The notes beneath the pieces are model-generated. The model searched no databases and was not told the origin of the DNA. It saw only the letters and a program-made list of their open reading frames with translations. DNA of 32,000 nucleotides from Candidatus Saccharimonadota bacterium (GTDB taxonomy: Bacteria; Patescibacteriota; Patescibacteriia; 2-12-FULL-60-25), in the NCBI GenBank assembly GCA_022843095.1, contig JALHOH010000002.1:60001-92000 (forward strand). Reading direction: 5' to 3'. The position numbers were made by a program, and so were the translations under genes. Every line of letters starts with the position of its first letter. The stretch's first letter is position 1. This document shows, piece after piece, positions 12,554-28,577 of this stretch.

Positions 12554-12651
12554 TCGTTTACGTTATCTTGCTTCACGAGCACTTTAAATGCATGAGCTTG
12601 TTTCACGGCTCGCGCGTCTGCTGAAAAATCTGGGTGTGGTATCATAGATGT

Positions 12652-13521: not shown

Positions 13522-13567
13522 AGAGTGGCGCATGGCGCAGAACGAGAAGTTCCCGTAAGCTTTGTGC

Positions 13568-15652
13568 ATGAACGAACGTTTTGCTCTGACGTCAAAATAC
13601 GCCCCTTCCGGTGACCAGCCGGAAGCGATTCAGCAGTTAACGGAGGGGCTCGCGAAGAACTACCGTTTTCAAACGCTTCTGGGCGCGACCGGCACGGGGA
13701 AGACGTTTACGATGGCGAACGTGATCCAGAACGTCCAAAAACCGACGCTCGTGATTGCGCATAACAAAACGCTCGCCGCGCAGTTGTGTAACGAGTTCCG
13801 CCAATTTTTTCCCGAGAACGCAGTGGAATATTTTGTTTCGTATTACGATTACTATCAGCCGGAGGCGTACATTCCGCGCAGCGACACCTACATCGAAAAA
13901 GAAGCGATGATCAACGAGGAGATTGATCGGTTGCGGCATTCGGCGACGCAGGCGCTTCTGACGCGCAAGGACGTGATCATCTGTGCGTCGGTGTCGTGTA
14001 TTTATGGTCTTGGGGCACCGGAGGCGTACGAAAAAATCATCTTGCATCTAAAAAAAGGGGATGACGTGGCGCGGCAGGAGGCGTTGACGCGGTTGATTGA
14101 GATGCAATTCGTGCGCACCAACGCGGATGTGATGCGCGGCCAGTTTCGGGCGCGTGGCGAGGTGTTAGAGATCATGCCAGTGAACGAAGAGGTGGTGTAC
14201 CGCATCGAAGCGCCGCGCGGGATTGTCCAAGGGATTTATCGGTTGGATCCTGTGACGCGCAAGGTGACGCGCGAGCAGGAGGAGTTGTGGGTGTTTCCGG
14301 CAAAGCACTTTGTGACGCTCGGGCCGGATCGAGAACGTGCGATCAAGGAAATTCGAGAGGAGTTGAAAGAACGTCTGGCGTATTTTGAGAAACACGGAAA
14401 ATTATTGGAGGCCGAACGGTTGGAGCGCAAGACGAAGTTCGATTTGGAGATGATCGAAAATCTGGGGTACTGCAACGGGATAGAAAACTATTCCCGCCCA
14501 TTGTCCGGCCGACCGGCAGGGGCGCCACCGGATACGTTGTTTTCGTATTTTCCGGATGACTTTTTGTTGGTCATCGATGAATCGCATGTCACGGTACCGC
14601 AGCTTGGAGGGATGTATGAAGGCGATCGTTCGCGTAAAGAAACGTTGGTGGAATATGGATTCCGCCTGCCATCGGCGAAGGATAACCGTCCCCTCAAATT
14701 CCCGGAATTGGAGGCAAAGATGAAGGCGGTGGTGTTTGTCTCCGCGACGCCGGGTGCGTATGAATTTGCGCATTCAACGCAGGTCGTCGAACAGATCATT
14801 CGTCCGACGGGGCTTGTGGATCCGGAGGTGTTGGTGTTGCCGATTACCCCAAAACACGGCGAGAAAGGGCAGGTAGATGATCTGCTTGCGCGGATTCCGG
14901 AGGTGTTGGAGCGCAATGAACGCGTGCTTGTGACAACGCTCACCAAAAAGATGGCGGAGGATCTGTCCGAATTCATGAAAGAAAAGAAGATGAAGGTCCG
15001 CTATTTGCATAGCGACATCGACACGATCGAGCGGTTGGAGATTCTTTCCGAGTTTCGCAAAGGAACATATGACATTATCGTCGGCGTGAACCTCCTTCGC
15101 GAAGGGTTGGATTTGCCGGAGGTGTCGCTTGTGGCGATTCTCGATGCAGATAAAGAAGGGTTTTTGCGTTCCGAGACGTCACTGATCCAAACCATCGGTC
15201 GTGCGGCACGTAACGTGCGCGGACAGGTGGTGCTCTACGCCGACGAAATGACGGGATCGATGAAGAACGCCATCCGGGAAACCGAACGTCGTCGTGCAAA
15301 ACAGTTGGCGTACAATGCGCTCCATGGCATCACGCCAAAAACCATCCTGAAAGCGCAGGAGGATTTGCGTGTCATGCTGGGATTATCCACGGAAGAAAAG
15401 GATGTGAAGGAGATCCTGAAACTCGAGCTCAGCGCAGAGACCCACGGACTTGAGCAGGTGAAAAAGCAAAAAGAGAAGGAGATGAAAGACGCAGCGAAGA
15501 ATCTCGAGTTTGAGTTGGCCGCCATTCTCCGCGATGAACTTGCCGTGCTGGAAAAAGAATTACGCAAACGCGAAAAAGGTGCGCCCTTGCCAGATGCGGA
15601 ACGAAAAAAGCTGGCGAAAAAGCGCCAGCCTCGACATGGGAGAACGCGTTAA
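13568..15652 (+). CDS. uvrB: excinuclease ABC subunit B
   Basis: Signatures are SKYAPSGDQPEAI, the Walker A LLGATGTGKTFT, and the C-terminal UVR domain EFELAAILRDELAVLEKEL. I prefer the ATG at 13568 over the TTG at 13562. Confidence 0.93.
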   Translation: MNERFALTSKYAPSGDQPEAIQQLTEGLAKNYRFQTLLGATGTGKTFTMANVIQNVQKPTLVIAHNKTLAAQLCNEFRQFFPENAVEYFVSYYDYYQPEAYIPRSDTYIEKEAMINEEIDRLRHSATQALLTRKDVIICASVSCIYGLGAPEAYEKIILHLKKGDDVARQEALTRLIEMQFVRTNADVMRGQFRARGEVLEIMPVNEEVVYRIEAPRGIVQGIYRLDPVTRKVTREQEELWVFPAKHFVTLGPDRERAIKEIREELKERLAYFEKHGKLLEAERLERKTKFDLEMIENLGYCNGIENYSRPLSGRPAGAPPDTLFSYFPDDFLLVIDESHVTVPQLGGMYEGDRSRKETLVEYGFRLPSAKDNRPLKFPELEAKMKAVVFVSATPGAYEFAHSTQVVEQIIRPTGLVDPEVLVLPITPKHGEKGQVDDLLARIPEVLERNERVLVTTLTKKMAEDLSEFMKEKKMKVRYLHSDIDTIERLEILSEFRKGTYDIIVGVNLLREGLDLPEVSLVAILDADKEGFLRSETSLIQTIGRAARNVRGQVVLYADEMTGSMKNAIRETERRRAKQLAYNALHGITPKTILKAQEDLRVMLGLSTEEKDVKEILKLELSAETHGLEQVKKQKEKEMKDAAKNLEFELAAILRDELAVLEKELRKREKGAPLPDAERKKLAKKRQPRHGRTR

Positions 15653-16554: not shown

Positions 16555-16640
16555 ATGCTAAATCTGTAACATGCAGGGGATAAACGCGTCTAGCAGACGG
16601 ATTGTTTGCGCCGGTATCCCTTTCCCGTTACATTCCGGAC

Positions 16641-18461
16641 ATGGATCCGATCCAGGAGATCAAAACCCGTCTGGACGTCGCGGACGTGATCGGGGAGTAT
16701 TTGCCGCTGAAAGCCGCAGGTTCGAATGCGTGGAAGGCGAACTGTCCGTTTCATCAGGAACGGACGCCGTCGTTTTATGTCTCGCGAACGCGGCAGTCGT
16801 GGCACTGTTTTGGCTGTGATACCGGCGGCGATATCATCTCCTTTGTAGAAAAAATTGAGGGGATGGAGTTTCGGGAGGCACTGGAATTGCTGGCGCAAAA
16901 AGCCGGGGTAGAATTGCCGAAGTTTGATAAGGAAAAAGCGTCACAAAAACAACGATTGGTAGAAATCAACGAACTTGCGGCGCGATTTTTTCGTTCGGTG
17001 CTTTCGACGTTGCCGCAAGCAGAGGTGGCGCGGAAGTATTTGGAGAAGCGTGGCGTGGATGATTTGACCGCCGATCTTTTTAAGATCGGGTATGCCCCGG
17101 ATACCTGGACGGCGCTGACGGATGCCTTGCAAAAGCGTGGCGTCACGGCGGCGGAATTGGTGGCGGCCGGGCTGTCTTCCAAACGTGAACGGGGGGAGGG
17201 GGTGTATGATCGGTTTCGTGGACGTTTGATGTTTCCGATCATGGATGTGCATGGCCACGTCGTGGGATTCACCGGGCGCATTCTGACGGACGACAAAAAA
17301 GAGGCGAAGTACGTGAACACGCCGGAGACGCAGATCTATAAAAAATCTGCGGTGTTATATGGTCTCGACAAAGCGAAGGGGGCGATTCGGCAGCAAGATC
17401 TCGCGGTCATTGTTGAAGGAAACATGGATGTGGTGTCGTCGCATCAATTTTCGGTGGACCATGTTGTTGCGGCAAGTGGGACGGCGTTGACGGCGGATCA
17501 ATTGGGATTGCTGAAGCGATTTACCAAAAACTTGGCGATTGCGTTTGATCAAGATAACGCCGGGAACGCCGCCACGTTGCGCGGGTTGGATTTGGCGCGC
17601 CAACAAGATTTCAACATCAAGATTATCACCTTGCCTCCGGAGGCGGGGAAGGATCCGGATGAGGCGGTGCGTAAAGATCCGGCACTGTGGAAGGAGGCGA
17701 TTAAAGAAGCGGTGAACATCATGGATTGGGTGTATCGGAATGCGTTTCGTGGGAGAAAATCAGATCGCCCAGAAGACAAGAAATTGATCGTTCGTGACGT
17801 GTTGAACGAAGTGATCCGCATCGCCGACGCGATCGAACGCGATCACTGGATTCGCAAGTTGGCGAAAGACATCGACGCAAGCGAAATTGCCATCCGTGAG
17901 GTGTTGGATCAGGTCAAGGGACAGGCAAAGCGCGAACCGAGAGAACCTCGAACGACGACGGCCCCTGCCACGGTAGTCGCAGAGGAGGGGACGGAGCCTA
18001 CACCGTCCGAACAGATCGCGGACCAGTTTGTGGCGGGGTTGATCTATCGCGAAGAATTGTGGCGTTTTGCCCACGAAACGCTCGCGCCAAAATTGGAATG
18101 GTTTGAGGAGCCGCGTCTCCAGGCGCTTTACACAACGCTTGTTTCTGCGTATCCTCTGGACAATCGCCCGCTTGTGGCGAACGGGAGCCCCTCCCACTCA
18201 CTCCGCCCTCCGGACGGCCTGGCGCCGGATCTCGCGGAAACCTTGAATCGATTGGCGTTCGCTGCCGATCGAGCCTTCCAGGACATGACGCTTGATGACA
18301 TCAAGCGCGAACTCAAGAACGGCGCCCGCGCCCTCCGTGACCTGTGGAAGGCTCGCGAACGGCGGCGCCTCGAAGAAGCCATGCGCGATGCAGAGCGAAC
18401 GGGTGATCAACAGACGATTGCCCATCTCGCGACCGCATTCCGCGCGCTAACCGACGCATGA
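16641..18461 (+). CDS. dnaG: DNA primase
   Basis: Signatures are the zinc ribbon [14 protein letters not shown]...[11 protein letters not shown] and a TOPRIM region [11 protein letters not shown]...DQDNAG. I prefer the ATG at 16641 (MDPIQEIK). Confidence 0.92.
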
Positions 18462-19741
18462 GTTCTCCTATGGCGCAAGCCAAGAAAGCGAAGAAGAAGT
18501 TTTTTCCCACCAAGCCGAAGGCAAAACCGAAGGTAGCAAAGCCCGCCGTCAAAAAGGCACCTGCCAAGAAACCGGTTGCCGCAAAGAAAGGAAAGGCAGG
18601 AAAGGGAGCAAAAGCCACGCCGATCAAACGCGAGCCCTACAAAAAAGCAGAAGCGCCGACCCAAGAAGCGTTGGATCGGTTGTTTGAGAAGGCGCGCGGT
18701 CGTGGATTCATCACGGAAAATGAAATCCTCTACTCGTTTAAAGAAGTAGAAGATTATTTGGATACCTACGAACAGTTCATCGACCGGCTGGATGCAGCAG
18801 GGATCAGCCAGGTCGAGCAAAAAGAGGGGATTTTGGGACGCAGCAAAGACCGCCAGACGATTCTGGAAACGTTGCACTCCGCGGATGAACGTCGCAACAA
18901 AATCGATCCGATGGATCTGACGGCCGAGTCTATCCAAATCTACCTGCGTGAAATCGGGAAGATCCCGTTGCTCACGGCAGAACAAGAGGTGGCGCTCGCC
19001 AAGCGCAAAGAAAAGGGAGAAAAAGAGGCGGAACGGTGTTTGATCGAGGCGAACTTGCGCTTGGTCGTGTCGATCGCCAAGAAGTTCACCGGAAAAAGCT
19101 TGTCGCTGCTTGACCTGATCCAAGAGGGAAACATCGGGCTTTTCCGCGCCGTGAAGAAATTCGAATACCGCAAGGGATTCAAATTCTCCACGTATGCCAC
19201 CTGGTGGATCCGCCAGGCCATCACGCGTGCGCTTGCAGACCAATCTCGCACCATCCGCATCCCGGTGCACATGGTGGAAACCATCAACAAGTTTCAGCAG
19301 GTCGAACGCGAGCTCATCCAAGAGCTTGGCCGCGAACCAACACCAGAAGAAATCGCCGCGGAAATGGGACAGGAAGTCGACAAGGTGCGTCACATCATCA
19401 AAATTTCGCAGGACACGGTGTCGCTTGAGACGTCTGTCGGTGATGATGAAGATGACACGACGCTGCAGGACTTCATCGAAGACGTGAAGCATGTGACGCC
19501 GGATCGTTCTGCGGCGCTTCAGCTGCTGCGCGATTACGTCGGCGATATCATCAAAGACCTGAACCCGCGTGAACAAAAGATTCTGGAGATGCGCTTTGGG
19601 CTAAGCGATGGCGTCGGTCACACGCTCGAAGAAGTTGGGAAGGAATTCGACGTGACGCGCGAACGTATCCGCCAAATCGAGGCAAAAGCCTTAGAAAAGA
19701 TCCAACAGCACCCGATGATTCGCCGCCTGGCGGATTACTAG
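18458..19741 (+). CDS. rpoD: RNA polymerase sigma-70 factor RpoD with Lys/Ala/Pro-rich N-terminal tail
   Basis: Signatures are region 2 ([30 protein letters not shown]), IRIPVHM, and region 4 ([19 protein letters not shown]). There is an ATGA overlap with the dnaG stop. Confidence 0.93.
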
Positions 19742-19750
19742 GAAGAAGAC

Positions 19751-19773
19751 CGCCCGGGAAACCGGGCGTTTTT
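19751..19773 (+). terminator. intrinsic terminator after rpoD
   Basis: The hairpin is cgcccgg-gaaa-ccgggcg, followed by TTTTT. Confidence 0.8.
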
Positions 19774-19789
19774 CTTATTCGTTATCCAC

Positions 19790-19818
19790 TTGTCACGGGT
19801 TTTCAGATCTTGTATCCT
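19790..19818 (+). promoter_or_regulatory. possible sigma70-like promoter for tRNA-Asn
   Basis: The arrangement is TTGTCA (19790-19795), a 17-nt spacer, then TATCCT (19813-19818). It lies 28 nt upstream of the mature tRNA 5' end. The -10 match is weak. Confidence 0.3.
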
Positions 19819-19845
19819 CCACGTGCTGATGCAAATCAAGCCCAT

Positions 19846-19920
19846 TCCGGGGTAGCTCAGCGGTAGAGCAGTGGACTGTTAATCCATTGGTCCTGGGTTC
19901 GAATCCCAGCCCCGGAGCCA
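19846..19920 (+). tRNA. tRNA-Asn (anticodon GUU), CCA encoded
   Basis: Manual cloverleaf: acceptor tccgggg/ccccgga, D-arm gctc-agcggta-gagc, anticodon arm gtgga-CTGTTAA-tccat, variable tggtc, T-arm ctggg-ttcgaat-cccag, discriminator G, then CCA. Confidence 0.9.
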
Positions 19921-19958
19921 TGTGCTGGCGTTCCTGGTAACCCAGGTGCGTCGCAAAA

Positions 19959-20000
19959 AATCCAAAACCCCATCACTGAAAAGTGGTGGGGTTTTGGATT
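19959..20000. terminator. very long hairpin (18-bp stem) after tRNA-Asn; probable bidirectional terminator or structural boundary element
   Basis: The 5' arm aatccaaaaccccatcac (19959-19976) pairs with gtggtggggttttggatt (19983-20000) around the loop tgaaaa, with one G-U pair. An A-run precedes it. Confidence 0.6.
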
Positions 20001-20005
20001 GTAGT

Positions 20006-20129
20006 TATCAGTATTGTGTCGAGACCGAGTCTGCTATCAGCCGAAATTGGATACAGGGAGTATCAGTGGGGCAGCGGATTAATGTACACGACTATCATCT
20101 TTATCTTAACATTCCTTTCATATCCTAAC
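20006..20129 (+). repeat. cluster of same-orientation TATC-core direct repeats
   Basis: TATCAG occurs at 20006, 20035 and 20061, and TATCAT at 20093. A near-identical 9-mer pair, TATCTTAAC (20102-20110) and TATCCTAAC (20121-20129), follows. All lie in a 3'-to-3' intergenic region that needs no promoter. Confidence 0.6.
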
Positions 20130-20214
20130 GTGAGAATAGGAAAGGAATGTCGGCGGTCAGGTCGCCGAGAGGGGAGAGATATTCTTCACACCTGACATGA
20201 AGAAGTTATGAGGT

Positions 20215-21912
20215 TTACGACCACTCGGCAGCGTTTAGCAAGTCGAGATCTTTGTAGGTAACGGAAGCCGCCGGATGGGCGTATTCGATCACCTGCGCAC
20301 GAATAAACCCCTTGACAAAGGTCATGCCGGGCGGAAGATCGCGTCCAAAGGACTCGTAGTAAGCCTTCCGGGCTTCTTCACCTGCTTTCTGTCCGATGCG
20401 CAGTCGACGAGGAAAGCTGCGAACGTTGACCTCTCTCGTCACGTTCTGTCCGTCTTGCCCCGTTTTATGCCAGGAATGGCGTTCTCGGACGATGGAGTTT
20501 GCGGCGATAATGCGGAAGTACGCATCGACCACCGTGTATTCGAGGAGGGCGGCGAGAGTTTCCACTTCGTCCGCGTGCTCGCCGCGTATAACGATTTCCG
20601 GATGGACCTTGAGCTCAAGGTTTCGGAGCTCGGTCCGGAAGGTGATCAACGTAGGTGTCTCTTGCCGTACCACGATATCCACTCGAGTATCGGGGAAGGT
20701 GTAGCCCTCGGGGCGGAAAACGAAGCCCCGGATCCCGGCGTTTCGGAGCGCCGTGACCCCGACCTCTACGGAATCCTCACCGTTGGGGCGCAGAGTGCGC
20801 AGCGTCTTCCCAAGAATGGCCTGGGTCCGACGATCGAACTGCTGTTCGATCTCGTGACTATTCTCTTTGAACCAGTTGATGGTGCGTTCGCCGGTCTCGC
20901 GTTTTTTAAGCATCTGTTCGCGATGACGATCACGCCACTCTCTGAATTTGGTTGCGAACGGCTCTTGGATGCGCAGGCAGGGCTGGAAAGTGTACGCGGC
21001 GCGCTCCCGAAGAACTTCCAGGTCTTTTTCAGGCAGCTCTTCCTTTGCTCGCAGGAAGCCCGGATGCGAGCACGCCTCCTCTGGATGGTCATCGTAATCA
21101 TCGAACGCCTCATACCAAGGCTGATGAAGGACGAAGGCGGCGATATGCAGCAACGAAGACAGGATTTCTTCGGCTGCGTAGGATGTAGGCAACGCCTCGA
21201 TGATGCGTTCAAGCCATGCCTTTTGGGCTTGCTTGAGGTTAACCACTTCTTCTCCCAATTCCCCTTCCTGAAGAAGGGGTGCTTCATTGATAGAGTCTTG
21301 CAGGAATCCAAGGGCCCCACTCATCAACTCGACACTGTGGTTGTTTTCGAGTTGATCCGGCCTAACGGGTCCATGGCGAAGGTCTCCCTCCCAGGTGGAG
21401 ATGATGCTAAGAGCAAAGGAGAGTGCTTTATCGCACGAGACGCCTACCTGCCTTAGAAAAGCTTCCTGGAATTTGAAGAGCCCTCGACCCATGAGCCACA
21501 CCATCTGTGACTTAAGATCGCCATCCGAATCCAATCCTTTTGTCAGGACGTCCTCTCCGCGAGACCTGCTGTAGGCGAGAAAAAAGAGCTCAGGATTCTT
21601 GTTGGAAAGAAGCTGTTCCGCGATGGTGTCATGGAGTCGGTTGACACGCTTCGCGGTCTTGGACTCTTTCACCTGCTTTACCAAGGCGGCGTACTCCTCC
21701 TCACTCATCGGGTTCCCGCGCATCTCTCGCTCCAGGCATGGAACCAGGAGCTGCATGAGAGCGAGTTCGAGTTCTATGCAGACGGTCTCGAAGCGTTTCA
21801 GGCGCACATTTGCATCTGGAATTTCAAGGAGATGCGTGAGGATGCGGTGAAGCCATTTTTCGCTTTTACTATCCGAGAGGTAGCGCTTGAGATCGTGCTT
21901 GATGTTGGTCAT
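20215..21912 (-). CDS. 565-aa orphan protein; helical N-terminal two-thirds, C-terminal region with PD...ExK-like motif (function unknown)
   Basis: This is the longest ORF at the locus and has a natural amino-acid composition. Its ATG lies 2 nt after the stop of the upstream 131-aa gene (TAACCATG). I recognise no family. The motif FPDTRVDIVV...x...LELKV spans aa 407-435 (20608-20694). Confidence 0.7.
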   Translation of the reverse strand: MTNIKHDLKRYLSDSKSEKWLHRILTHLLEIPDANVRLKRFETVCIELELALMQLLVPCLEREMRGNPMSEEEYAALVKQVKESKTAKRVNRLHDTIAEQLLSNKNPELFFLAYSRSRGEDVLTKGLDSDGDLKSQMVWLMGRGLFKFQEAFLRQVGVSCDKALSFALSIISTWEGDLRHGPVRPDQLENNHSVELMSGALGFLQDSINEAPLLQEGELGEEVVNLKQAQKAWLERIIEALPTSYAAEEILSSLLHIAAFVLHQPWYEAFDDYDDHPEEACSHPGFLRAKEELPEKDLEVLRERAAYTFQPCLRIQEPFATKFREWRDRHREQMLKKRETGERTINWFKENSHEIEQQFDRRTQAILGKTLRTLRPNGEDSVEVGVTALRNAGIRGFVFRPEGYTFPDTRVDIVVRQETPTLITFRTELRNLELKVHPEIVIRGEHADEVETLAALLEYTVVDAYFRIIAANSIVRERHSWHKTGQDGQNVTREVNVRSFPRRLRIGQKAGEEARKAYYESFGRDLPPGMTFVKGFIRAQVIEYAHPAASVTYKDLDLLNAAEWS

Positions 21913-21914
21913 GG

Positions 21915-22310
21915 TTAGCCTTCTTTCTTTTGAGTGTTGGTTTTTTGATGGAGATGGATTCGAAGCTCGGCTTCTGTGTGGTAAGTCGCTTGGAGGTTTT
22001 TTAGGAACTCTATAAAGGTTGGCTTATCCTTTTCTGGCATGGCTCGGTACACGGTAACGAGCTTAGCCATATACCGCTTGAGGGTTTGGGGTCCGATGCC
22101 AACGCTCGGTGCAGGCTTCGAACAGAGATGCGCCACCTCCCTACATTGGAGTGAGAACTCTACGGGTCGTTCCTTGTAAGCGGCGGCCAGTTCTGGTTTT
22201 GTGCTTGCAGCCCAGCGAGCGAAGTCGTTCTTGGTGACCCCGATCAGTTCCGGGCGCAATCCGGTCCATTCCAGATATACGGCGATCAGCTCGTCCAATG
22301 AGATGGTCAC
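21915..22310 (-). CDS. 131-aa small protein with helix-turn-helix-like segment (putative regulator/DNA-binding)
   Basis: The segment VGIGPQTLKRYMAKLVTVY resembles an HTH. The gene is first in the minus-strand operon, is translationally coupled to the 565-aa gene, and faces a divergent AT-rich control region. Confidence 0.55.
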   Translation of the reverse strand: MTISLDELIAVYLEWTGLRPELIGVTKNDFARWAASTKPELAAAYKERPVEFSLQCREVAHLCSKPAPSVGIGPQTLKRYMAKLVTVYRAMPEKDKPTFIEFLKNLQATYHTEAELRIHLHQKTNTQKKEG

Positions 22311-22390
22311 GATGATTCCTCGTGTTGAGAAGGTTCGTTTTCTGGGCTAGATGCTCAGAATAGTTCCTATTCAAGGGCATTTTTTATTAT

Positions 22391-22439
22391 TTGTCAACGG
22401 TGCTTTTATGGCAATTCGTCAGTGGGTATCGATTGACAA
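22391..22439. promoter_or_regulatory. inverted heptamers in divergent control region (candidate operator/promoter elements)
   Basis: TTGTCAA (22391-22397) and its reverse complement TTGACAA (22433-22439) sit in the AT-rich 198-bp gap between the divergent operons. Both also resemble -35 hexamers. CAGTGGGTATC lies at 22420-22430. Confidence 0.35.
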
Positions 22440-22508
22440 AACCGCATTTTTCGTCTCAAACTAGCGTCAGTCCATTGGACAACTAAACAAGCAGAAAGGC
22501 AGGTCTGT

Positions 22509-25500
22509 ATGGCAGCCCTGAAAAATAAGGGTCATATGCTGGCCCTGATCCGCAAAAGCAAAATCCCGGAAGAGGAAAAGAGAGCGTTTCTCGCAGAGCT
22601 GGTCCGCACGGGTCAAGTCACCGAGGACGATCTCGCTCGCTCCATCCTTGAAGATGTACGAACGAACTTTGAGGACTACAAGCAGCAGTTCGCGAGCGAT
22701 GAAATGTTGACATTCCTTTGGGAGCGGTTCAAAGACCATCCTGAAATGTTGGCTAGGGCACTCGTGAAAGCGCGCCCGGACATCTTCTATGTCTACGGGT
22801 TGGCGATCCGCCTTGTCCTTAAACTCCGTGCGGAACTTGGAAAGGTGCTGGTCAAGCCGAAGCTTGGGAATGGGGGCGGCGTCCGAGACATCGCGCCGTC
22901 CCCGAAGCTACCGCAGGCGGTTTCACAAGACATCATCGCCCTCGACGTGGAATGCCGATTTCGCGAATCGCTGTTCTTCTTTAGCCGGGACGTCGAGATT
23001 GGGAGGGAGTTCATCCGCGAAGAACTCGGCCGAGCCAAGGGTCCGTACGAGCGCCAGGTGTGGGAAGGTGTGCAGATGCTCGTCGCCCAGCTTCTCGATC
23101 TGCCGTATCCGGGCGTGAAAACGGAATTGAACGGCAAGATGTTTCCTGCCATGCATGTGCGTTGGTGGCACTACCTTGCCGCCGACCTGAAACGCGTCCT
23201 CAACATCGGCGACACGGGAAGCTATAAGACTTCTTTTGCCGCCATTGCGATGCGCCGGGCGGGTTGCCGTAGGACGCTTGTCCTTGCGGCTCCTCATGCG
23301 CGCGAGAATTGGCGCAGGGAACTCGGCCTCTACTTCGAGGAACGTCCGTCCGTTCAGATCGTATCCGGCGTCGAAGACGTCGATGATCTGCACCCGGAAG
23401 CGGACTTCGTCGTGATTGGATACTCGACCCTCGTTGAAAAGGGGGTCGTGGAAAAGCTGATCGCGCAAAAGTTCGACGGTCTCATCGAGGACGAGTGTCA
23501 CTATACGCGTAACGTCGTGGATTCCCCGGCGAAGCGCGCGCTCGCTAGGATGCGACTCGTCCAAGAGCTGCCGCTCGATCGCTACCTCGCGCTTTCGGCG
23601 ACGCCTTGGGAGAACCGTCCGGAAGAGATGGCGAGCTTGGCCTCGGCACTGCGACCCGATCTTTTTCCAACGCCCGAGGTGTTCCTGGGTAGCGGAGCGG
23701 CGAGCAGTCCGCGTCTCATGCGGGAGTTGTTCGCCGGGCAAATTCTCGACATCGAGCTGCGCGAAGTTACGGACATGCCGGAGATCACACCCAAACCCTG
23801 GGAGGACCTCTGCCCGTCCGTGACTGTTCGTCCCAATCGTCAACATCTCGCCTTTTATCGGCGGGTACTGGATGATGAAGAAGAATCCCTCGAACCGCAC
23901 CAAAAAGTGCAGCGACTCCTCATGGCCGCCATCCATCCGCCACTTCTTGCGCGCAAGCTCAAGAAGTGGACGGATCCGCCTCGCGCGAACGATTGGAAGT
24001 TGTCGAGCAAGCTCGTGTGGTTAAAACAATTCGTTACGGAGCGGATTGGTACGCAGAAAATCGTCATCGCGAGCGGGCTCTATGCCTCAGGGATCACACA
24101 TCCTTCCGAGATGGAGGATATGGAAACCGAGTGGGTAGGCGGAATTCTCCGCGCCTGGTTTGGCAAGGAGACCGTCGTAACCATCGACGATACGGTCGGT
24201 CTCGGCGCTCCCGAGGGTGGATTGTCGCCCCGGGACCGAGCGATCCAGCGTTGGCGAACGGATCCGAGCGCCAGGATTCTGCTCATCTCGAGCCAGTCGT
24301 GTCCGGATTCGGTCAACCTGTCGGTTGGCAAGCTGCCGGGCGTCGAGGGGCTTGCGATCACCTTCCTGTCCTTCGGATGGAAGCCGTGGAAGCAATTCCT
24401 CGGCCGCTTCTTCCGGTACGGCCAAGGAGTGCCGATCACTTTCGTCTATCCGGTCGTGGCAGGCACGATCGACGAGGACCTGCTCCGCCTGAACCGCGAG
24501 AAGTGGCAGGCGCAGCTCTTGTTCCGCGCCGGCGCGCCTCTCACGGATGATGAATGGCGGGCGTTGCAAAGCGAAAACGGCGAAGCGATTCAGCGTCTCA
24601 TGCGGGACGCTTCCGATCATGTCGCCATCCTCTTCAACCAGATGCGCGGAGAAGGGGAGCGTGCCTGCCGGGAAATCCTGGACCAGGCGTACGGGGCAGT
24701 TTCTGCGGAGGAGGCGCTTGCCATGCACTTCCTCGCTGCGCAGGACTACTCCATGAGCGGGCATATCTCGCGCTTCCAGAAAACTGTGATTGAGCAATGG
24801 ATCGCCTGTGGTCTCATTACTCCGACGCGGATTCTAGATGCGGGATGCGGCCCCCTTACTCTTGAACGGAGGCTCTTCCTTCCAGTATACGGTGTGGACC
24901 TCAACCGTCACATGCTCGAACTGGGATCGGGGCTCTCGTCGCACCATGGCGTCAATGCCACGGTCGGTCGGTTGTCCGAGCTTCCGTCCGAATGGAAAGG
25001 GAAGTTCGAGCTTACGGTTGCGACCATGGTCCTCGACCTGACGAGCTTGAAAGAGCCGTCCCATGGTGAACCGGAACGTGTGCGCATCTTGCAGGAGCTT
25101 GTGCGGGTCACGGATCCGCATAGCCTCGTCTGGCTTACGTGGAGCTATAATTGCCACACGCCGGAAACTTTTCAGGCGTGGGTTGAGGCGTTGGAGCAAG
25201 CGGGTTGCAAGATCCGTTCCGAGCTCACAGGCCTCGTCCAGGCAACAGACCATGAAGAACAGCCGTGTGAATTCTGGTCTTTGGCGTTTTCGCCCCATGG
25301 GAAGACGCCGACCTTCGTTCGTCCCGAACTTCTTAGGTTCGCCTTCGAGATCGAGAGGATGAAGGATCGGAAAGGAGGGGTGGCGAAACCACCGAAACCT
25401 CCAAAGACCAAGAGGCGTGTCGCGCACGAGCGCTTCGCTGTCACGACCGCGACCGGTCAGCTCACCGACGTGGATGCGGCGAAAGCGGCTGCCTTGAACG

Positions 25501-25634
25501 AGCTGCTGCGATGGATGAACGCGGGCGTGCAGACGCGGAAACTGCACCCGGCGACCATTGATCTGGCCGCGCATTTCGCCCGCGATTGGCGTGTTCTCCG
25601 TGCTCTCCAAGAGCAGGGACTGATCACCCTGTGA
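22509..25634 (+). CDS. SNF2-family (SF2) ATPase/translocase fused to a C-terminal class I SAM-dependent methyltransferase domain
   Basis: Helicase motifs are motif I GDTGSYKTS (23208-23234), motif II DECH (23490-23501), motif III LSATPWEN (from 23592), the C-lobe ILLISSQSCPDSVNL, and motif VI QFLGRFFRYGQ (24393-24425). MTase motifs are motif I ILDAGCGPL (24831-24857), then VYGVDLN and ELVRVTDPHSLVWLTW. A basic linker KPPKPPKTKRR is followed by a C-terminal helical domain. Confidence 0.85.
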   Translation: MAALKNKGHMLALIRKSKIPEEEKRAFLAELVRTGQVTEDDLARSILEDVRTNFEDYKQQFASDEMLTFLWERFKDHPEMLARALVKARPDIFYVYGLAIRLVLKLRAELGKVLVKPKLGNGGGVRDIAPSPKLPQAVSQDIIALDVECRFRESLFFFSRDVEIGREFIREELGRAKGPYERQVWEGVQMLVAQLLDLPYPGVKTELNGKMFPAMHVRWWHYLAADLKRVLNIGDTGSYKTSFAAIAMRRAGCRRTLVLAAPHARENWRRELGLYFEERPSVQIVSGVEDVDDLHPEADFVVIGYSTLVEKGVVEKLIAQKFDGLIEDECHYTRNVVDSPAKRALARMRLVQELPLDRYLALSATPWENRPEEMASLASALRPDLFPTPEVFLGSGAASSPRLMRELFAGQILDIELREVTDMPEITPKPWEDLCPSVTVRPNRQHLAFYRRVLDDEEESLEPHQKVQRLLMAAIHPPLLARKLKKWTDPPRANDWKLSSKLVWLKQFVTERIGTQKIVIASGLYASGITHPSEMEDMETEWVGGILRAWFGKETVVTIDDTVGLGAPEGGLSPRDRAIQRWRTDPSARILLISSQSCPDSVNLSVGKLPGVEGLAITFLSFGWKPWKQFLGRFFRYGQGVPITFVYPVVAGTIDEDLLRLNREKWQAQLLFRAGAPLTDDEWRALQSENGEAIQRLMRDASDHVAILFNQMRGEGERACREILDQAYGAVSAEEALAMHFLAAQDYSMSGHISRFQKTVIEQWIACGLITPTRILDAGCGPLTLERRLFLPVYGVDLNRHMLELGSGLSSHHGVNATVGRLSELPSEWKGKFELTVATMVLDLTSLKEPSHGEPERVRILQELVRVTDPHSLVWLTWSYNCHTPETFQAWVEALEQAGCKIRSELTGLVQATDHEEQPCEFWSLAFSPHGKTPTFVRPELLRFAFEIERMKDRKGGVAKPPKPPKTKRRVAHERFAVTTATGQLTDVDAAKAAALNELLRWMNAGVQTRKLHPATIDLAAHFARDWRVLRALQEQGLITL

Positions 25635-25719
25635 ACCCAATGACGGATCCCGTTCCGCGTGGGATTCGTTTGCCTCCTTAGATCATGCCTTCGAAACGTC
25701 TCAACTTTCTAGAGGTGTC

Positions 25720-26337
25720 ATGGCTAAAAAGGTTCAGGTAAACGATGATGGTTTCTTCCGTCGCGAGCATGACGTGCTCGCCAAAGACCTGCTTGGCCGC
25801 AAGGTCAAACTCGACGCGACGTTCTTCTACATCCTCGAAGCCGAAGGCTACCCGGCGGAGAAGAACGGCGGCCTCTACGAACCGGTCATGAAGATGTCTC
25901 CCGGAGGCATCTTCTGCCCGAAGTACCACAATCACTGCCTCCTCTTGATTGCTTGCCTTTCGAGTGGGTCGATCGGAGGATGTGTCCTTGTGCGCGCCAT
26001 TGAGCGAGCCGACGGGCGTATGATCAAGCGTCCTGGTCTGGTCGCCCAGGACCTCGGCATCGAGGACCACGGTGTCACAGGTACCATGCACGAGCGCGAC
26101 GGAGTGCTGGGGTTGGGTCTGAACGGGGCTAATCCGCCGACGATCGAGCCCGTGACGACCAGCGCGCCCACCGGCGTGAGCCAGGCGGAGATCCAATCTC
26201 GCATGGGTAAGATCATGAAGGTCTATCAGGAACGCCGAAAGGCGGATACGGCGCTGACCTTCGAGGTCTTCCTCAAACAGTGCTTCGCCTGCAAGACTCC
26301 GCGCGCGCTCGGCCTGATGCTGAACGAATCGGTATAA
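25720..26337 (+). CDS. divergent alkyladenine/3-methyladenine DNA glycosylase (AAG/Mpg family)-like protein with C-terminal extension
   Basis: The protein is collinear with human AAG. FFRREHDVLAKDLLGRKV matches FFDQPAVPLARAFLGQVL. ILEAEGY (25831-25851) matches IVETEAY, which carries the catalytic Glu. MSPGGIF...GGCVLVRAIE matches MKPGTLY...GACVLLRALE. An RBS GAGG lies 5 nt upstream of the ATG. Confidence 0.6.
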   Translation: MAKKVQVNDDGFFRREHDVLAKDLLGRKVKLDATFFYILEAEGYPAEKNGGLYEPVMKMSPGGIFCPKYHNHCLLLIACLSSGSIGGCVLVRAIERADGRMIKRPGLVAQDLGIEDHGVTGTMHERDGVLGLGLNGANPPTIEPVTTSAPTGVSQAEIQSRMGKIMKVYQERRKADTALTFEVFLKQCFACKTPRALGLMLNESV

Positions 26338-26375
26338 TCGCGAGCGACTTCCGCTTGCGGTTCGGCAATCTGAAC

Positions 26376-26426
26376 CCGTATCGATGGATTCTCTCTTTAG
26401 AGGGCGTCCATTCGATACGGTTTTTT
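26376..26426 (+). terminator. intrinsic terminator closing the plus-strand operon
   Basis: The 5' arm ccgtatcgatgga (26376-26388) pairs with tccattcgatacgg (26407-26420) with one bulge. It is followed by TTTTTT (26421-26426). Confidence 0.8.
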
Positions 26427-26573
26427 CTATTTAGAAGAGTTAATTTGATAGGGGAAAATCGTGTATGATTTGTCTGATTTCCCTCGTGACCCACGTGCGT
26501 AAAATGCCGTCGTAAAAACCTCCAAGGATCCTTCCTAAACCGAGTTCACCACCCGCCCGTTGAGCCACGCGAG

Positions 26574-26607
26574 ACCGATCGTCGCAAGACGGTCGGTTTT
26601 GCATTTT
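26574..26607 (+). terminator. second, orphan intrinsic terminator about 55 nt upstream of the next gene
   Basis: The stem accgatcgtc-gcaa-gacggtcggt has 10 bp including one G-U pair and is followed by TTTTGCATTTT. No annotated plus-strand gene ends just before it. Confidence 0.6.
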
Positions 26608-26662
26608 GTCTAGGTTACCGCTTCGACGGGTGTATTCATCGAAAACTTGATAAAATGGAGAC

Positions 26663-27226
26663 ATGAGAAAACTGATCATGTGGAACGTGATTTCACTCGA
26701 TGGATGCTTTGAGGGTGAAGTGCCTTGGGATCTCGCCTTTCATGAACTGGTGTGGGGCAAAGAGCTTGAAGATTTTAGCCACGAACAGCTCAGGACGGCG
26801 GATATGCTCGTCTTTGGGGAGAATACGTATAAAGGGATGGCTGCGTATTGGTCGAAGGTAGAAGGGGAATCTCCAGAGGGTAAAACGGCAACGCGTATGA
26901 ACGCAATCCGCAAGATTGTGTGCTCGCCGACCATGGATCGTGCTGACTGGAATAACACGACCCTCTTACGCGATGCCGTTGCCGAGATCCCCACATTGAA
27001 ACAAGAGGGTGATGGAAATATGCTCGTTTTCGGGAGCGGGATTCTTTCGGAGTCACTCATGCGTGCGCACCTCTTTGACGAGTATCGACTCGTTATCGCA
27101 CCGGTTTTTCTGGGGAAGGGGAGGCGTCTTTTTACGAATGAACTGGAGTACCAGCGGTTGAAGCTCCTTGAGTCGTGTCCGCTTTCAAGCGGTGGCGTTA
27201 TTCTGCGATATGCTCCTGTTTCGTAA
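26663..27226 (+). CDS. RibD C-terminal domain / dihydrofolate-reductase-like family protein
   Basis: Signatures are MRKLIMWNVISLDGCF...MLVFGENTYKGM...LVFGSGILSESLM...DEYRLVIAPVFLGKGRRLF. A GGAG lies 4 nt upstream of the ATG. Confidence 0.75.
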   Translation: MRKLIMWNVISLDGCFEGEVPWDLAFHELVWGKELEDFSHEQLRTADMLVFGENTYKGMAAYWSKVEGESPEGKTATRMNAIRKIVCSPTMDRADWNNTTLLRDAVAEIPTLKQEGDGNMLVFGSGILSESLMRAHLFDEYRLVIAPVFLGKGRRLFTNELEYQRLKLLESCPLSSGGVILRYAPVS

Positions 27227-27229
27227 ATT

Positions 27230-27619
27230 ATGAATAGAGATATCGCCGCGTACAATCGCGAGCAGGTGAGTCCATGGAAATTAATCTGTTCGCGACTAGC
27301 GAAAGAGATTGACGCGGGACTTTCCAGTGTAGAGAGCAAGATTTGGCATGGCGCACCCGTTTGGTTTTTGGATGGGAATCCTGTCGTTGGATATGTCGTG
27401 CTGAAATCGTGTGTCCGGCTTTTATTTTGGAGTGGAGGGTCGTTTGAAGAGCCAAGTCTCACACCTGAAGGAAGTTTTAAGGCTGCAGAAGCTCGTTACA
27501 CCAGCACGACGCAGATCAACAGCAGGGAACTAAAGCGTTGGCTTAAAAAGGCCAAAGCGATCCAATGGGATTATAAAAATATTGTCAAACGTAAGGGAAA
27601 GCTGGTGCGGTTGAAATAA
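27230..27619 (+). CDS. DUF1801 (YdhG-like) domain protein
   Basis: The pattern KIWHGAPVWFLDGNPVVGYVVLKSCVRLLFWSG is typical of DUF1801. The gene starts 3 nt after the previous stop. Confidence 0.6.
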   Translation: MNRDIAAYNREQVSPWKLICSRLAKEIDAGLSSVESKIWHGAPVWFLDGNPVVGYVVLKSCVRLLFWSGGSFEEPSLTPEGSFKAAEARYTSTTQINSRELKRWLKKAKAIQWDYKNIVKRKGKLVRLK

Positions 27620-27737
27620 TAGGAAAAGTGGCCTACTGAGGGTCGGTATTTGATTAAGTTATTCCGGTTTTTGTTGCCTCTTTCCCACGCGTTGCGTAGG
27701 ATCCCGCGGTCCTCTGGACGAAGGGAGTATCGGTATC

Positions 27738-28577
27738 ATGAGGCATGTTGGATCGGAAGCGCTGGCGAGGCGTGCGGCAGAGGTGTTGGCCGAGCGACTG
27801 CAGATTACGGACGGCAATCGTCCGAAACTGGGGGTCGTGCTCGGGACCGGATGGGGTGGCGCGCTTCCCTGGGGGGAGGATGCGCGGCGGGTCAGCATGA
27901 AGGAGATCCCTGGATTCGACGCGGATGCACTGCATGATCTGCCCGGTCATGATCGGCAGGTGGTGTGCGGCACGCTGAACGAGAAGCGGGTGATTGCGCT
28001 GCAAGGGCGCGTGCATCTAAACGAGCATCCGTCTGGGGAGGTGATTCCGCGCATGGTGCGGTTACAGGTGGAGATGCTGTTTCAGCTCGGTGTCCAGACG
28101 CTGATTTTGACCGCTGCGGCGGGAAGTCTGCGCCCGGAGATCGAGGTCGGGGACATTGTGGTGATCGATGGGCTGGTTACGCTCTTCGCACCCAAGATGC
28201 CGCTCTTCACGGGCGAGTTCTGCTCTCCCGAAGACACGTTGCACCCGAAGCTCCGCGAGATGGCGGTGGAGGCCATTCGATCCGTTTCGTCGCGCGCGGC
28301 GGAAGGGGGGCACGTGATGGTCTGTGGTCCGTTCTTTGAGGGGAGAAAGTACGATAAACCGCTCTTGAAGCAGAGCGGGGCATCGGTTGTCGGGATGAGC
28401 ATCCTTCCGGAAGCCTGTGTTGCGGCGCTCTATCCCGGGGTTCGCGTGGTGGCGCTCACGTTTATCACGAACTCGGCGACGGAAGAGCATTCGCACGAGA
28501 CGAACCAGGCGCGCGCCAAAGAACGATCCCAGGACATGGGGCGCGTCCTTCTGCAGATGCTCGCGCAGATGGGATGA
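27738..28577 (+). CDS. purine nucleoside phosphorylase / MTAP-family phosphorylase (PNP_UDP_1)
   Basis: Signatures are GVVLGTGWG, LPGH...LQGRVHLNE, LILTAAAGSL...VGDIVVIDG, and VVGMSILPEACVAA...TFITNSA. Confidence 0.8.
   Translation: MRHVGSEALARRAAEVLAERLQITDGNRPKLGVVLGTGWGGALPWGEDARRVSMKEIPGFDADALHDLPGHDRQVVCGTLNEKRVIALQGRVHLNEHPSGEVIPRMVRLQVEMLFQLGVQTLILTAAAGSLRPEIEVGDIVVIDGLVTLFAPKMPLFTGEFCSPEDTLHPKLREMAVEAIRSVSSRAAEGGHVMVCGPFFEGRKYDKPLLKQSGASVVGMSILPEACVAALYPGVRVVALTFITNSATEEHSHETNQARAKERSQDMGRVLLQMLAQMG

Follow-up and report, generated by a model that had tools for sequence, protein, structure and literature searches.

DISARM brings a SNF2-family ATPase and a methyltransferase together in one multi-protein cluster acting on DNA, while Type ISP and Type I restriction-modification (R-M) systems (LlaGI, LlaBIII; HsdR/M/S) combine a translocase and a methyltransferase with exchangeable DNA-recognition modules. 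In the eukaryotic DNMT5 and the trypanosomatid JBP2, a SNF2 ATPase is fused to a DNA-modifying enzyme: DNMT5 has a C5-cytosine methyltransferase and JBP2 a TET/JBP dioxygenase. Here we analyze a four-gene module (genes A to D) in a 32,000-nucleotide stretch of DNA from a Candidatus Saccharimonadota bacterium (the window), in which protein C has the SNF2-fusion architecture of DNMT5 and JBP2, although neither the C5-cytosine methyltransferase nor the dioxygenase domain occurs in the module. An earlier note had claimed that the module matches no known system, and indeed no described system was recovered for it with PADLOC or Pfam or in viral, phage and plasmid collections.

Layout and conservation of the module

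The four open reading frames, the tRNA-Asn and the terminator were reproduced exactly at the positions that the earlier note had given them (ORF list, ARAGORN/Rfam, RNA fold), and dnaG and rpoD were found upstream as it had described (Table 1). The start of A lies 2 nt from B. The module begins 295 nt after the tRNA-Asn, which is followed by a bidirectional hairpin (inverted repeat, 19959-20000), and at its other end the terminator hairpin (26376-26420; -27.3 kcal/mol, z = -5.3 versus shuffles) runs into U6. The B/C intergenic region carries a back-to-back pair of TTGACA-like boxes, at 22380-22387 and at 22432-22461, that is kept in the closest relatives (alignment with L060 and L069), and a promoter-like match was found on the minus strand of the same region. 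Since the N-termini of homologues align with the proposed starts for all four ORFs, A, B, C and D are real genes.

Table 1. Features of the module and its surroundings in the window
Feature	Position (nt)	Strand	Residues (aa)	Basis or remark
dnaG	16602-18461			upstream of module
rpoD	18458-19741			upstream of module
tRNA-Asn(GTT)	19846-19920	+		ARAGORN and Rfam; left-hand neighbour, context rather than functional part
Gene A	20215-21912	-	565	ORF list
A, conserved part	20233-20955	-	320-560	C-terminal ~230 aa
Gene B	21915-22310	-	131	GTG start; ORF list
B, shared CTD	21945-22106	-	69-122	hhalign with D
Divergent intergenic control region between B and C	22311-22508	.
Gene C	22509-25634	+	1041	ORF list
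C, N-domain	22509-23180	+	1-224
C, SNF2 ATPase	23181-24578	+	225-690	Pfam SNF2-rel_dom, PDB profile search
C, class I SAM methyltransferase	24756-25208	+	750-900	Pfam Methyltransf_31/25/11
C, tail	25209-25634	+	901-1041
Gene D	25720-26337	+	205	ORF list
D, AAG/FMT_C-like beta-barrel	25747-26139	+	~10-140	Pfam, AF2, Foldseek
D, shared CTD	26158-26328	+	147-203
Intrinsic terminator closing the C-D operon	26376-26426	+		RNA fold
RibD_C gene	from 26663			downstream of module

Full-length relatives of protein C number about 46, every one of them in Patescibacteria/CPR, and ~26 module loci were found across all collections. A homologue of D adjoins or lies near full-length C in each of the 20 informative distinct loci, a homologue of B is present in 15 of the 19 testable loci, and A adjoins C in seven distinct loci, with a variant of A in two more. 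Gene order is rearranged among the ~20 loci of co-occurrence; in three of them (L003, L008 and L015) A-B-C-D are co-directional, overlapping or separated by short gaps. C, D and B co-evolve, their pairwise identities rising and falling together (Spearman 0.65-0.77). The four-gene module proposed in the earlier note is therefore co-inherited across distinct loci; it is real, conserved and undescribed, and occurs in a small set of CPR bacteria that are uncultured and have tiny genomes.

The subunits change at different rates. Identity to the closest relative is 77% for C, 52% for D, 51% for A and about 43% for B, so that C is by far the slowest of the four to evolve. Paralogue expansions also occur, with three CTD/HNH_repeat genes (CTD, the C-terminal domain shared by B and D) in L012, two A genes in L009 and two A-like (fam17) genes in L007.

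Domain composition of the four proteins

Protein C combines helicase motifs with SNF2 profile matches and is an ATPase of the SNF2 family (SF2). SNF2-rel_dom (Pfam) scores 24.9 bits, exactly at its cut-off; SsoRad54 (1z63) is matched in the PDB profile search over aa 249-668 (E = 2e-12), and phrog_62 at 3e-23. Across 23 sequences, K240 (Walker A), D328/E329 (DExH), S363-P366 and Q629/G632/R633/R636 are invariant. This covers helicase motifs I, II, III and VI as well as methyltransferase motifs I and II. The C-terminal part of C carries the motif I (LDAGCG, with D777 and G781 invariant), the acidic residue at the end of beta-2 (D797, invariant) and the Rossmann-like profile matches of a class I SAM-dependent methyltransferase, with Methyltransf_31/25/11 (Pfam) matching at E = 6e-5 to 5e-4. 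Profile matches and invariant motifs thus uphold the fusion of a SNF2 ATPase with a SAM methyltransferase that had been claimed from the ORF translation. Among the residues singled out at the time, K240 and D777 are invariant as expected; residue 778 is Ala, not Gly, and G781 is the invariant glycine.

The kinship of this methyltransferase is a different matter. Its PDB profile matches are small-molecule methyltransferases, including 3sm3 and ToxA. Neither the DNA-methyltransferase motif IV (DPPY) nor the PC dipeptide is present in C, where the consensus after beta-4 reads LTVASLVLDW, and N6_Mtase, DNA_methylase and MethyltransfD12 profiles gave no Pfam or NCBIfam match. Judged by sequence, the domain appears to be of the Methyltransf_11/25/31 small-molecule type rather than an N6A, N4C or C5 DNA methyltransferase. 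The earlier assignment as a SAM methyltransferase stands.

Protein D had been read as an AAG-like glycosylase. Pur_DNA_glyco (PF02245) scores 22.8 bits on the window's D (cut-off 27) and matches 10 of the 16 family members at E <= 0.1 (best 3.9e-11). The AF2 model of the N-domain (pLDDT 80-90) has its best Foldseek matches in the FMT_C domains of ArnA and Met-tRNA formyltransferase, not in AAG, and a sequence search with D found no AAG chains in the PDB. For the active site we aligned D with an hAAG sequence whose numbering was checked against known residues. The position of the catalytic Glu (E125 in hAAG) is E, Q, K, R, V, D or S in the 16 sequences; E42 is present in the window copy but is not a conserved feature of the family. 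The H136 loop is deleted, the equivalents of Y159, Y162 and N169 are replaced by Pro, Arg and aliphatic residues, and Y127 is the only hAAG position retained. In sum, the fold part of the claim survives and the catalytic part is not supported: the N-domain of D looks, from these comparisons, like a remote AAG/Mpg homologue within the AAG superfamily.

Protein B consists of a small helical N-domain followed by a ~55-aa CTD, which is also C-terminal in D (hhalign probability 98.4%, E = 8e-15); direct BLASTP of B against D aligns the same CTD segments at E = 0.03. The 131-aa protein had been described as an HTH protein, but no family of Pfam, NCBIfam or PHROG, HTH and wHTH models included, matches it at E <= 1 or 0.01. 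In sister loci the CTD is fused to DUF4379 treble-clef zinc-finger arrays, to HNH_repeat (homing-endonuclease-type repeats) and to HTH domains, while a related 435-aa protein in L020 pairs the N-terminal segment of B with INT_rpt repeats. Where C is short (N-domain and SNF2 only), a CTD protein is still found next door, and D is lost together with the methyltransferase. The variety of DNA-binding arrays joined to the CTD suggests that it may be a common adaptor. Because the CTD was not detected in C itself, docking through this domain is something we infer.

Protein A, the large partner in the module, varies between lineages. Its N-terminal half is a helical repeat (AF2 pLDDT ~80; C-terminal half <40), and its family has 114 members (HMMER, 1.84 billion representatives). 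In other lineages A is replaced by non-homologous large proteins. Searches of Pfam, PHROG, PADLOC and the PDB returned nothing for A, and the suggestion that this 565-aa protein is a nuclease finds no signature to support it.

Genomic setting and interpretation

Most module loci lie in housekeeping neighbourhoods. The gene uvrB lies 4.5 kb upstream of the module in the window and 2-7 kb from it in L001, L002 and L007, and uvrA is near the module in L001 and L003. In Uhrbacteria the order is rnhB, H+-PPase, X, C, D, B, DndB-like, tig, nfo; an nfo-type AP endonuclease is also near the module in L015. This synteny is kept down to ~40-50% C identity. A neighbourhood so deeply conserved, both in Uhrbacteria and near uvrB/uvrA in the window's clade, looks vertical, which is unusual for defence islands, and deep synteny beside uvrB/uvrA, nfo and rnhB suggests vertical inheritance. 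Such a setting speaks for a housekeeping-like role in genome maintenance, in which a lineage-specific SNF2 translocase complex would survey lesions or odd bases via its AAG-like subunit and hand them to BER or NER, or would remodel or epigenetically mark the nucleoid. The single-copy state of the module, its absence from viruses and plasmids, the probable membership of D in the AAG superfamily (with E42 in the window copy) and the lack of a recognizable nuclease point the same way. We nevertheless regard genome maintenance as an unlikely, if serious, alternative. Members of the D family do not conserve the residues that AAG uses for catalysis and base stacking; repair factors seldom have accessory subunits that are swapped, duplicated and fast-evolving; the module family is scarce and, even among CPR, seems patchily distributed; and codon usage is atypical for the window. 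Furthermore, the proximity of Uvr, nfo and rnhB genes could be inherited synteny, because tig and H+-PPase are conserved alongside.

The synonymous codon usage of the module departs from that of the window's other 22 genes to an extent reached by none of 500 random subsets. This departure, the short distance to the tRNA-Asn and the closest relative, whose same four genes sit at a different place beside a tyrosine integrase, an HTH_17 gene and a 5S rRNA gene, would suit the cargo of an unrecognized mobile element integrated at tRNA-Asn, as the earlier note had alternatively proposed. That account is improbable: the window lacks any gene for an integrase, an excisionase, transfer or replication; no tRNA 3'-end repeat or att repeat occurs in 19700-27800; the GC content of the module is not aberrant; its nearness to uvrB is repeated in L001 and L007; several CPR lineages have the module in a deeply conserved chromosomal neighbourhood; and no relatives were found in the viral contigs, phages and plasmids of the collections searched. 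We attach a similarly low probability to DNA hypermodification, in which D would exchange (transglycosylase-like) or flip bases, the methyltransferase would finish the base and the SNF2 motor would scan, as in JBP2 or DpdA/DpdB. In each of the five Uhrbacteria loci whose downstream sequence is available, B is followed by a DndB/DpdB-like gene (Pfam DndB 1e-5, PADLOC DpdB 4e-6), SAM synthetase is encoded directly upstream of C in L078, the methyltransferase belongs to a kind that acts on small molecules and unusual substrates, and D has a glycosylase-superfamily fold. However, both DndB/DpdB matches are under their curated cut-offs, the gene is absent from the window and its clade, TGT/DpdA-like and precursor-biosynthesis genes are lacking, and no potentially catalytic residue of D is conserved, which leaves the reading purely conjectural. 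Finally, that four unrelated genes are neighbours by chance is extremely improbable; nothing beyond the lack of a known function for A and B favours it, and it is refuted by the CTD shared between B and D, the correlated identities of co-evolving proteins, and co-occurrence across ~20 distinct loci with rearranged order.

With confidence just short of even, we propose that the products of the four genes form an ATP-driven machine of several subunits that tracks along DNA and is specific to one CPR/Patescibacteria group. C would be its hub, with a SNF2 dsDNA translocase and a SAM-dependent methyltransferase in a single polypeptide. D would serve as an AAG/FMT_C-fold reader of bases or nucleic acid and B as a small helical protein, with the CTD as the putative docking adaptor through which one DNA-recognition subunit could be exchanged for another on the motor. 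A, the fast-evolving and lineage-replaceable partner, would likely be an effector or scaffold. In such a cycle, reader subunits would choose a DNA site or state, the motor would translocate, the methyltransferase would mark its target, presumably DNA, and A would execute the outcome.

The single most likely role for this machine, itself a tentative assignment, is modification-coupled DNA discrimination, that is, R-M-like immunity against foreign DNA, which we place ahead of a repair or epigenetic role. The evidence on the role is mixed, with deep synteny on one side and, on the other, a locus adjoining Cas12a-like/Cas1/Cas2/Cas4 genes (the sole defence-island association), the integrase-adjacent locus, atypical codons and fast accessory subunits. 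The rapid evolution of A, B and D, the paralogues, partner replacement, the DndB/DpdB-like gene, the Cas and integrase loci and the odd codons are conflict-like and favour the proposed machine, as does the rarity of the module. It is further supported by what the sequences show directly, namely the domain identities, the intact ATPase and SAM-binding motifs of C, the domain common to B and D, the co-occurrence and co-evolution of the genes, and the short-C loci that keep a CTD protein. Against it count the deeply conserved neighbourhood, the failure to detect the CTD in C, the methyltransferase without motif IV, the absence of a PADLOC match, the absence of viral, phage or plasmid copies, and the fact that no nuclease or other effector domain is recognizable in the four proteins. 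A more specific version, possible but doubtful, is a modular CPR immune (or DNA-marking) system in which the ~55-aa adaptor docks interchangeable readers on one motor-methyltransferase, with an orphan effector. Its readers would include HTH proteins, zinc-finger arrays and homing-endonuclease-type repeats, along with a base reader that has an AAG fold and a degenerate catalytic site. If true, this would be a new architecture of self/non-self discrimination in minimal-genome organisms.

Whichever role applies, a ~6-kb module has been retained and has co-evolved across several candidate phyla despite tiny CPR genomes, it comprises three unannotated families (A, B with its CTD, and the truncated AAG-like D), and it leads to concrete predictions that can be tested.

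Comparison with known systems

PADLOC Drm models matched none of the four proteins or their sister-locus neighbours, which sets the module apart from DISARM. In contrast to DISARM, the ATPase and the methyltransferase are one polypeptide here, the latter being of Methyltransf_11/25/31 type without DPPY/PC, and DrmA (DUF1998 helicase), DrmB and DrmC (PLD) are missing. Similarly, PADLOC, Pfam and NCBIfam revealed no PglZ, BrxC, PglX, HsdS/TRD, HsdM or Res nuclease of BREX or Type I-III R-M systems; the ResIII score of 19.8 bits falls under its cut-off of 22.5 bits. In the analogy with Type ISP and Type I R-M systems, the CTD-bearing readers would act as HsdS/TRD. Unlike those systems, the module has a motor of SNF2 type, not HsdR/RecB-like, and lacks an Mrr or PD-(D/E)XK nuclease, an N6_Mtase and a TRD; its recognition parts are separate zinc-finger, HNH-repeat or AAG-like proteins. 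An immune function would make it a new architecture among translocase-plus-methylase defences, one in which DNA readers plug into a fused motor and methyltransferase, and would bear on the means by which episymbionts that have few classical systems withstand foreign DNA.

The likeness to the 7-deazaguanine (Dpd) system consists of weak DpdE-like matches of C (E ~1e-3) and the DpdB/DndB-like neighbour in Uhrbacteria, whereas DpdA (TGT-like), DpdC and any of DpdD-K are absent and all matches are far under family thresholds. D resembles AAG/Mpg (PF02245) and the phage-restricting glycosylases in its FMT_C/AAG-type barrel, by probable remote homology, but this barrel spans only ~135 aa, has lost the H136-carrying loop, has a variable catalytic Glu and is followed by the extra C-terminal domain common to B. 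As for DNMT5 and JBP2, to our knowledge neither has detectable orthology to C. The covalent coupling of a SNF2 motor to a modifying domain that C has in common with them implies ATP-dependent access to the substrate base and, should the role prove to lie in repair or epigenetics, the module would be a bacterial counterpart of these eukaryotic SNF2-coupled DNA modifiers.

A co-inherited gene module beside tRNA-Asn

The four open reading frames lie exactly where the earlier note had placed them, in two divergent pairs flanked upstream by dnaG and rpoD and downstream by a RibD_C gene at 26663. Since the proposed starts of A, B, C and D match the N-termini of aligned homologues, all four are real genes. 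The end of B and the start codon of A are separated by 2 nt, and a hairpin with a U6 tail (-27.3 kcal/mol, z = -5.3) follows D.

Coordinates of the module and associated features (window positions, unless a related locus on another contig, written L plus a number, is named)
Feature	Position	Strand	Remark
tRNA-Asn(GTT)	19846-19920		
Gene A, 565 aa	20215-21912	-	ORF
Gene B, 131 aa	21915-22310	-	ORF, GTG start
Gene C, 1041 aa	22509-25634	+	ORF
Gene D, 205 aa	25720-26337	+	ORF
Hairpin with U6 tail	26376-26420		
Hairpins between tRNA-Asn and A	20109-20150; 19959-20000		
B/C intergenic blocks	22380-22387; 22432-22461		
Inverted repeat, 25 nt	22214-22238 / 22617-22641		
uvrB	13562-15652		
295-aa ORF	12634-13521		
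Short-C locus, L021	8015-11520		
Short-C locus, L068	6162-9667		
Short-C locus, L070	74-3142		
Module and neighbours, L060	1-9480		
Module and CRISPR-Cas genes, L078	4913-18376		
Genes downstream of module, L001	17184-19515		
Sigma-70-family gene, L010	8588-9856		

The B/C intergenic region contains two blocks, TTTGTCAA and ATTGACAAAA..CATTTTT..CTCAAA, that are kept in L060 and L069 and resemble either the -35 boxes of two divergent promoters placed back to back or an operator. Arranged symmetrically around this region are the arms of an inverted repeat (84% complementary), one near the 5' end of the B coding sequence and the other near that of C; the repeat may be due to chance. Two hairpins occupy the interval from tRNA-Asn to the 3' end of A, one a stem with 19-nt arms and the look of a bidirectional terminator, the other a palindrome with 21-nt arms and no spacer. 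We also note a 295-aa ORF elsewhere in the window that has no Pfam match and is possibly a foreign gene (GC 0.47 and GC3 0.44, versus ~0.54-0.60 in its neighbours).

The C family is rare: a search of 5.8 billion protein clusters gave 46 homologues, of which nearly all are full-length fusions of ~1040 aa, and all source names are those of CPR lineages (Uhrbacteria, Sungbacteria, Parcubacteria or Patescibacteria). The module is restricted to uncultured lineages of this small-genome type. Co-occurrence was tested from C's side, on loci found through C: 18 orthologous loci from GTDB species representatives (one labelled Andersenbacteria), 8 from metagenomes and several from contig look-ups, with duplicates removed before the tally. 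The D barrel gene accompanies full-length C at all 20 informative loci, usually as the next gene and two genes away in L004, while a B-type small protein is present at 15 of 19 testable loci. The A family (fam11) occurs at seven informative loci and its variant fam17 at two more; at loci lacking A, an unrelated conserved protein is encoded upstream of C, either fam10 (Uhrbacteria) or fam57 (L004, L077 and L063). The order of the genes is not fixed (A-B-C-D, B-A-C-D, A-C-D-B-A and X-C-D-B), but the set is retained. C, D and B show correlated pairwise identities (Spearman 0.65-0.77), and the accessory proteins have diverged more rapidly than C, with identities to the closest relative of 77% for C, 52% for D, 51% for A and ~43% for B. 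The genes of the module are co-inherited, and chance adjacency of the four is excluded.

A motor-methyltransferase hub and its partners

Pfam, profile-versus-PDB searches and motif conservation all identify C as an SNF2 ATPase fused to a class I SAM methyltransferase. The Pfam matches are weak (SNF2-rel_dom, 24.9 bits; Methyltransf_31/25/11, E = 6e-5 to 5e-4); a 23-member profile matched the Sulfolobus Rad54-like SNF2 structure 1z63 across aa 249-668 (2e-12) and small-molecule-type methyltransferases (3sm3, ToxA, NovO/CouO) across aa ~760-880. No match was obtained for the first ~224 or the last ~140 aa of C. Because helicase motifs I, II, III and VI and methyltransferase motifs I and II are invariant in the family, both activities of C are probably intact. 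DNA can be proposed only as a putative methyl acceptor, since C contains no DPPY or PC motif and matched no DNA-methyltransferase profile.

The window copy of D scores 22.8 bits against Pfam PF02245, below the cut-off of 27, and 10 of 16 family members match this model (best 3.9e-11). In the AF2 model the N-domain is predicted with pLDDT 80-90, and its best Foldseek matches in the PDB are the FMT_C barrels of ArnA and Met-tRNA formyltransferase (E ~0.01), a fold that AAG shares by established fold classification. AAG itself was found neither by this structural search nor by PDB sequence searches with the D profile or the D protein of L001. The position aligned with AAG catalytic E125 is a glutamate in the window (E42) and varies among E, Q, K, R, V, D and S across the family. 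In the alignment with human AAG, whose numbering was checked against known residues, the H136 loop is deleted and Y159, Y162 and N169 are replaced. The AAG-like glycosylase label of the earlier note needs correcting: D is a remote AAG-superfamily member by profile and not a canonical glycosylase, its active site departing from that of AAG. As these residues are variable, deleted or replaced, D resembles a reader of bases or nucleic acids, or else an enzyme that has diverged strongly.

Protein B, previously taken for an HTH protein, matched no HTH model and no other family. Its aa 69-122 are homologous to aa 150-203 of D (hhalign probability 98.4%, E = 8e-15; direct BLASTP of the window proteins, E = 0.03 across the same segments). 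This C-terminal domain (CTD) is modular, being fused in sister loci to further DNA-binding modules: to DUF4379 treble-clef zinc-finger repeats (fam64), to homing-endonuclease-associated HNH_repeat modules (fam37, with up to three paralogues, in L012) and, in a 606-aa protein of L020, to HTH_17/HTH_29 domains; a separate 435-aa protein of L020 combines the N-terminal segment of B with INT_rpt integrase repeats. Three assemblies (L021, L068 and L070) encode a short C of 587-707 aa, comprising the N-domain and SNF2 without the methyltransferase. These loci lack D, and directly downstream of the short C lies a protein with the CTD at its N-terminus followed by 3-5 DUF4379 treble-clef zinc fingers. 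The occurrence of CTD proteins thus tracks that of the N-domain/SNF2 part of C, and the occurrence of D that of its methyltransferase part. The CTD was not detected within C or A, and we consequently infer, rather than observe, that it docks readers onto C. This shared adaptor-like domain is the most original feature of the module.

The A family has about 114 clusters at 50% identity and is conserved in its C-terminal ~230 aa, where nearly invariant residues include R375, G378, D380, R498, R502, L504, T531, F532 and V533. AF2 modeling of A (3 sequences) gave a helical repeat for the N-half and failed for the conserved C-half (pLDDT < 40); Foldseek returned only generic helical repeats, nothing meaningful. 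Searches of A against Pfam, PHROG, PADLOC and the PDB gave no match, and neither did A2 and A7 in PDB profile searches. The nuclease reading of A needs correcting: nothing supports it, and nothing excludes it. No homology of A with fam10 or fam57 was found, and fam17 has only a C-terminal motif of ~43 aa in common with A (73% probability). The best-conserved motif in A, VRPHxRRLPxGxxAS...LPxGxTFV (aa 490-550, window 20263-20443), repeatedly matched MBG_2-repeat surface proteins (P0133, P0153 and P0165) at a weak level. The relationship is probably repeat-summed noise; the matches might hint at a small beta-domain.

Evidence on inheritance and possible roles

Eight Uhrbacteria loci have a common order of rnhB, H+-PPase, fam10, C and D, and contigs that continue past D carry (CTD genes), B, a DndB-like gene and tig, to which L010 and L022 add nfo; in L015, nfo, tig and H+-PPase are kept nearby. 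In L010, the usual place of fam10 directly upstream of C is taken by a 422-aa sigma-70-family gene (Sigma70_r2 and r4), and rpoD is near the module in the window too. The window's clade has uvrB at a distance of 2-7 kb from the module (L001, L002, L007 and the window, there 4.5 kb upstream), and in L001 and L003 uvrA is close by. C relatives were absent from IMG/VR viral contigs, and GenBank phages and PLSDB plasmids gave only generic SNF2 similarity. The tRNA island proposed earlier finds no counterpart either, with no integrase homologue in the window and no att-like repeat of the tRNA-Asn 3' end within 19700-27800. Together, the Uhrbacteria, L015 and uvr synteny and these negative results argue for vertical, chromosomal inheritance.

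A repair or epigenetic role, which we rank second, would fit the neighboring repair genes; this proximity could simply reflect inherited synteny, since tig and H+-PPase are conserved alongside. Several observations argue for an accessory or conflict role: the rarity of C, the accessory subunits, which are duplicated, swapped and fast-evolving, atypical codon usage and the setting of two loci. Between the module and the other 22 window genes, synonymous codon usage differs by an RSCU distance of 1.07, a value reached by none of 500 random subsets (0.49 +/- 0.09), at an unremarkable GC content. The closest relative, L060 (C 77-78% identical), has the same divergent A-B/C-D module, neighbored not by tRNA-Asn but by a 23S/5S rRNA end, a tyrosine integrase (Phage_integrase) and an excisionase-like HTH_17 gene. 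In L078 (Candidatus Sungbacteria, GCA_016196165.1, JACPYH010000088.1), the only module locus in a recognizable defence island, MetK, C, D and B are directly followed by genes for a Cas12a-like protein (856 aa; RuvC_1, NUC, Cpf1_PI), Cas1, Cas2, a tyrosine integrase and a Cas4-like protein. L001 carries, downstream of the module, a protein with HMUDK_hel, the helical domain of 5-hmdU DNA kinase, and another with T5orf172/MUG113 and HNH_repeat; such proteins are typical of DNA-modification or homing-endonuclease contexts.

The module comprises a hub with intact SNF2 and SAM-binding motifs, a base-reader-like barrel protein and a small protein that have the CTD in common, and a variable large partner. 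Among the possible roles we place R-M-like immunity, in the form of modification-coupled discrimination of DNA, first and hypermodification third; a defence role is one of two live hypotheses. In such discrimination, the CTD would dock exchangeable DNA readers onto the C motor, which would translocate on dsDNA while its methyltransferase marks it, and A might act as effector or scaffold.

Relation to known systems

The undescribed DNA-targeting module of the earlier note is supported as to its reality, its composition and its lack of a known home, and needs correction in its glycosylase, HTH, nuclease and tRNA-island labels. We found no paper describing the SNF2-methyltransferase fusion or the module, and PADLOC searches with the four proteins and 10 neighboring or sister proteins gave only sub-threshold matches (mad2 and, for the Dpd system, DpdE and DpdB). 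None of the membership features of known systems that we tested was found. The translocase-plus-methylase logic is common to the module, DISARM and Type ISP/Type I R-M, but DrmA/B/C of DISARM, the BREX-type features PglZ and BrxC, and HsdS/TRD, N6_Mtase and nuclease of Type ISP/Type I R-M are absent. A likely architectural parallel is offered by DNMT5 and JBP2, SNF2-coupled modifiers of eukaryotes. In sum, the module is best classed as a variant nearest in kind to SNF2/methylase-based DNA-targeting systems.
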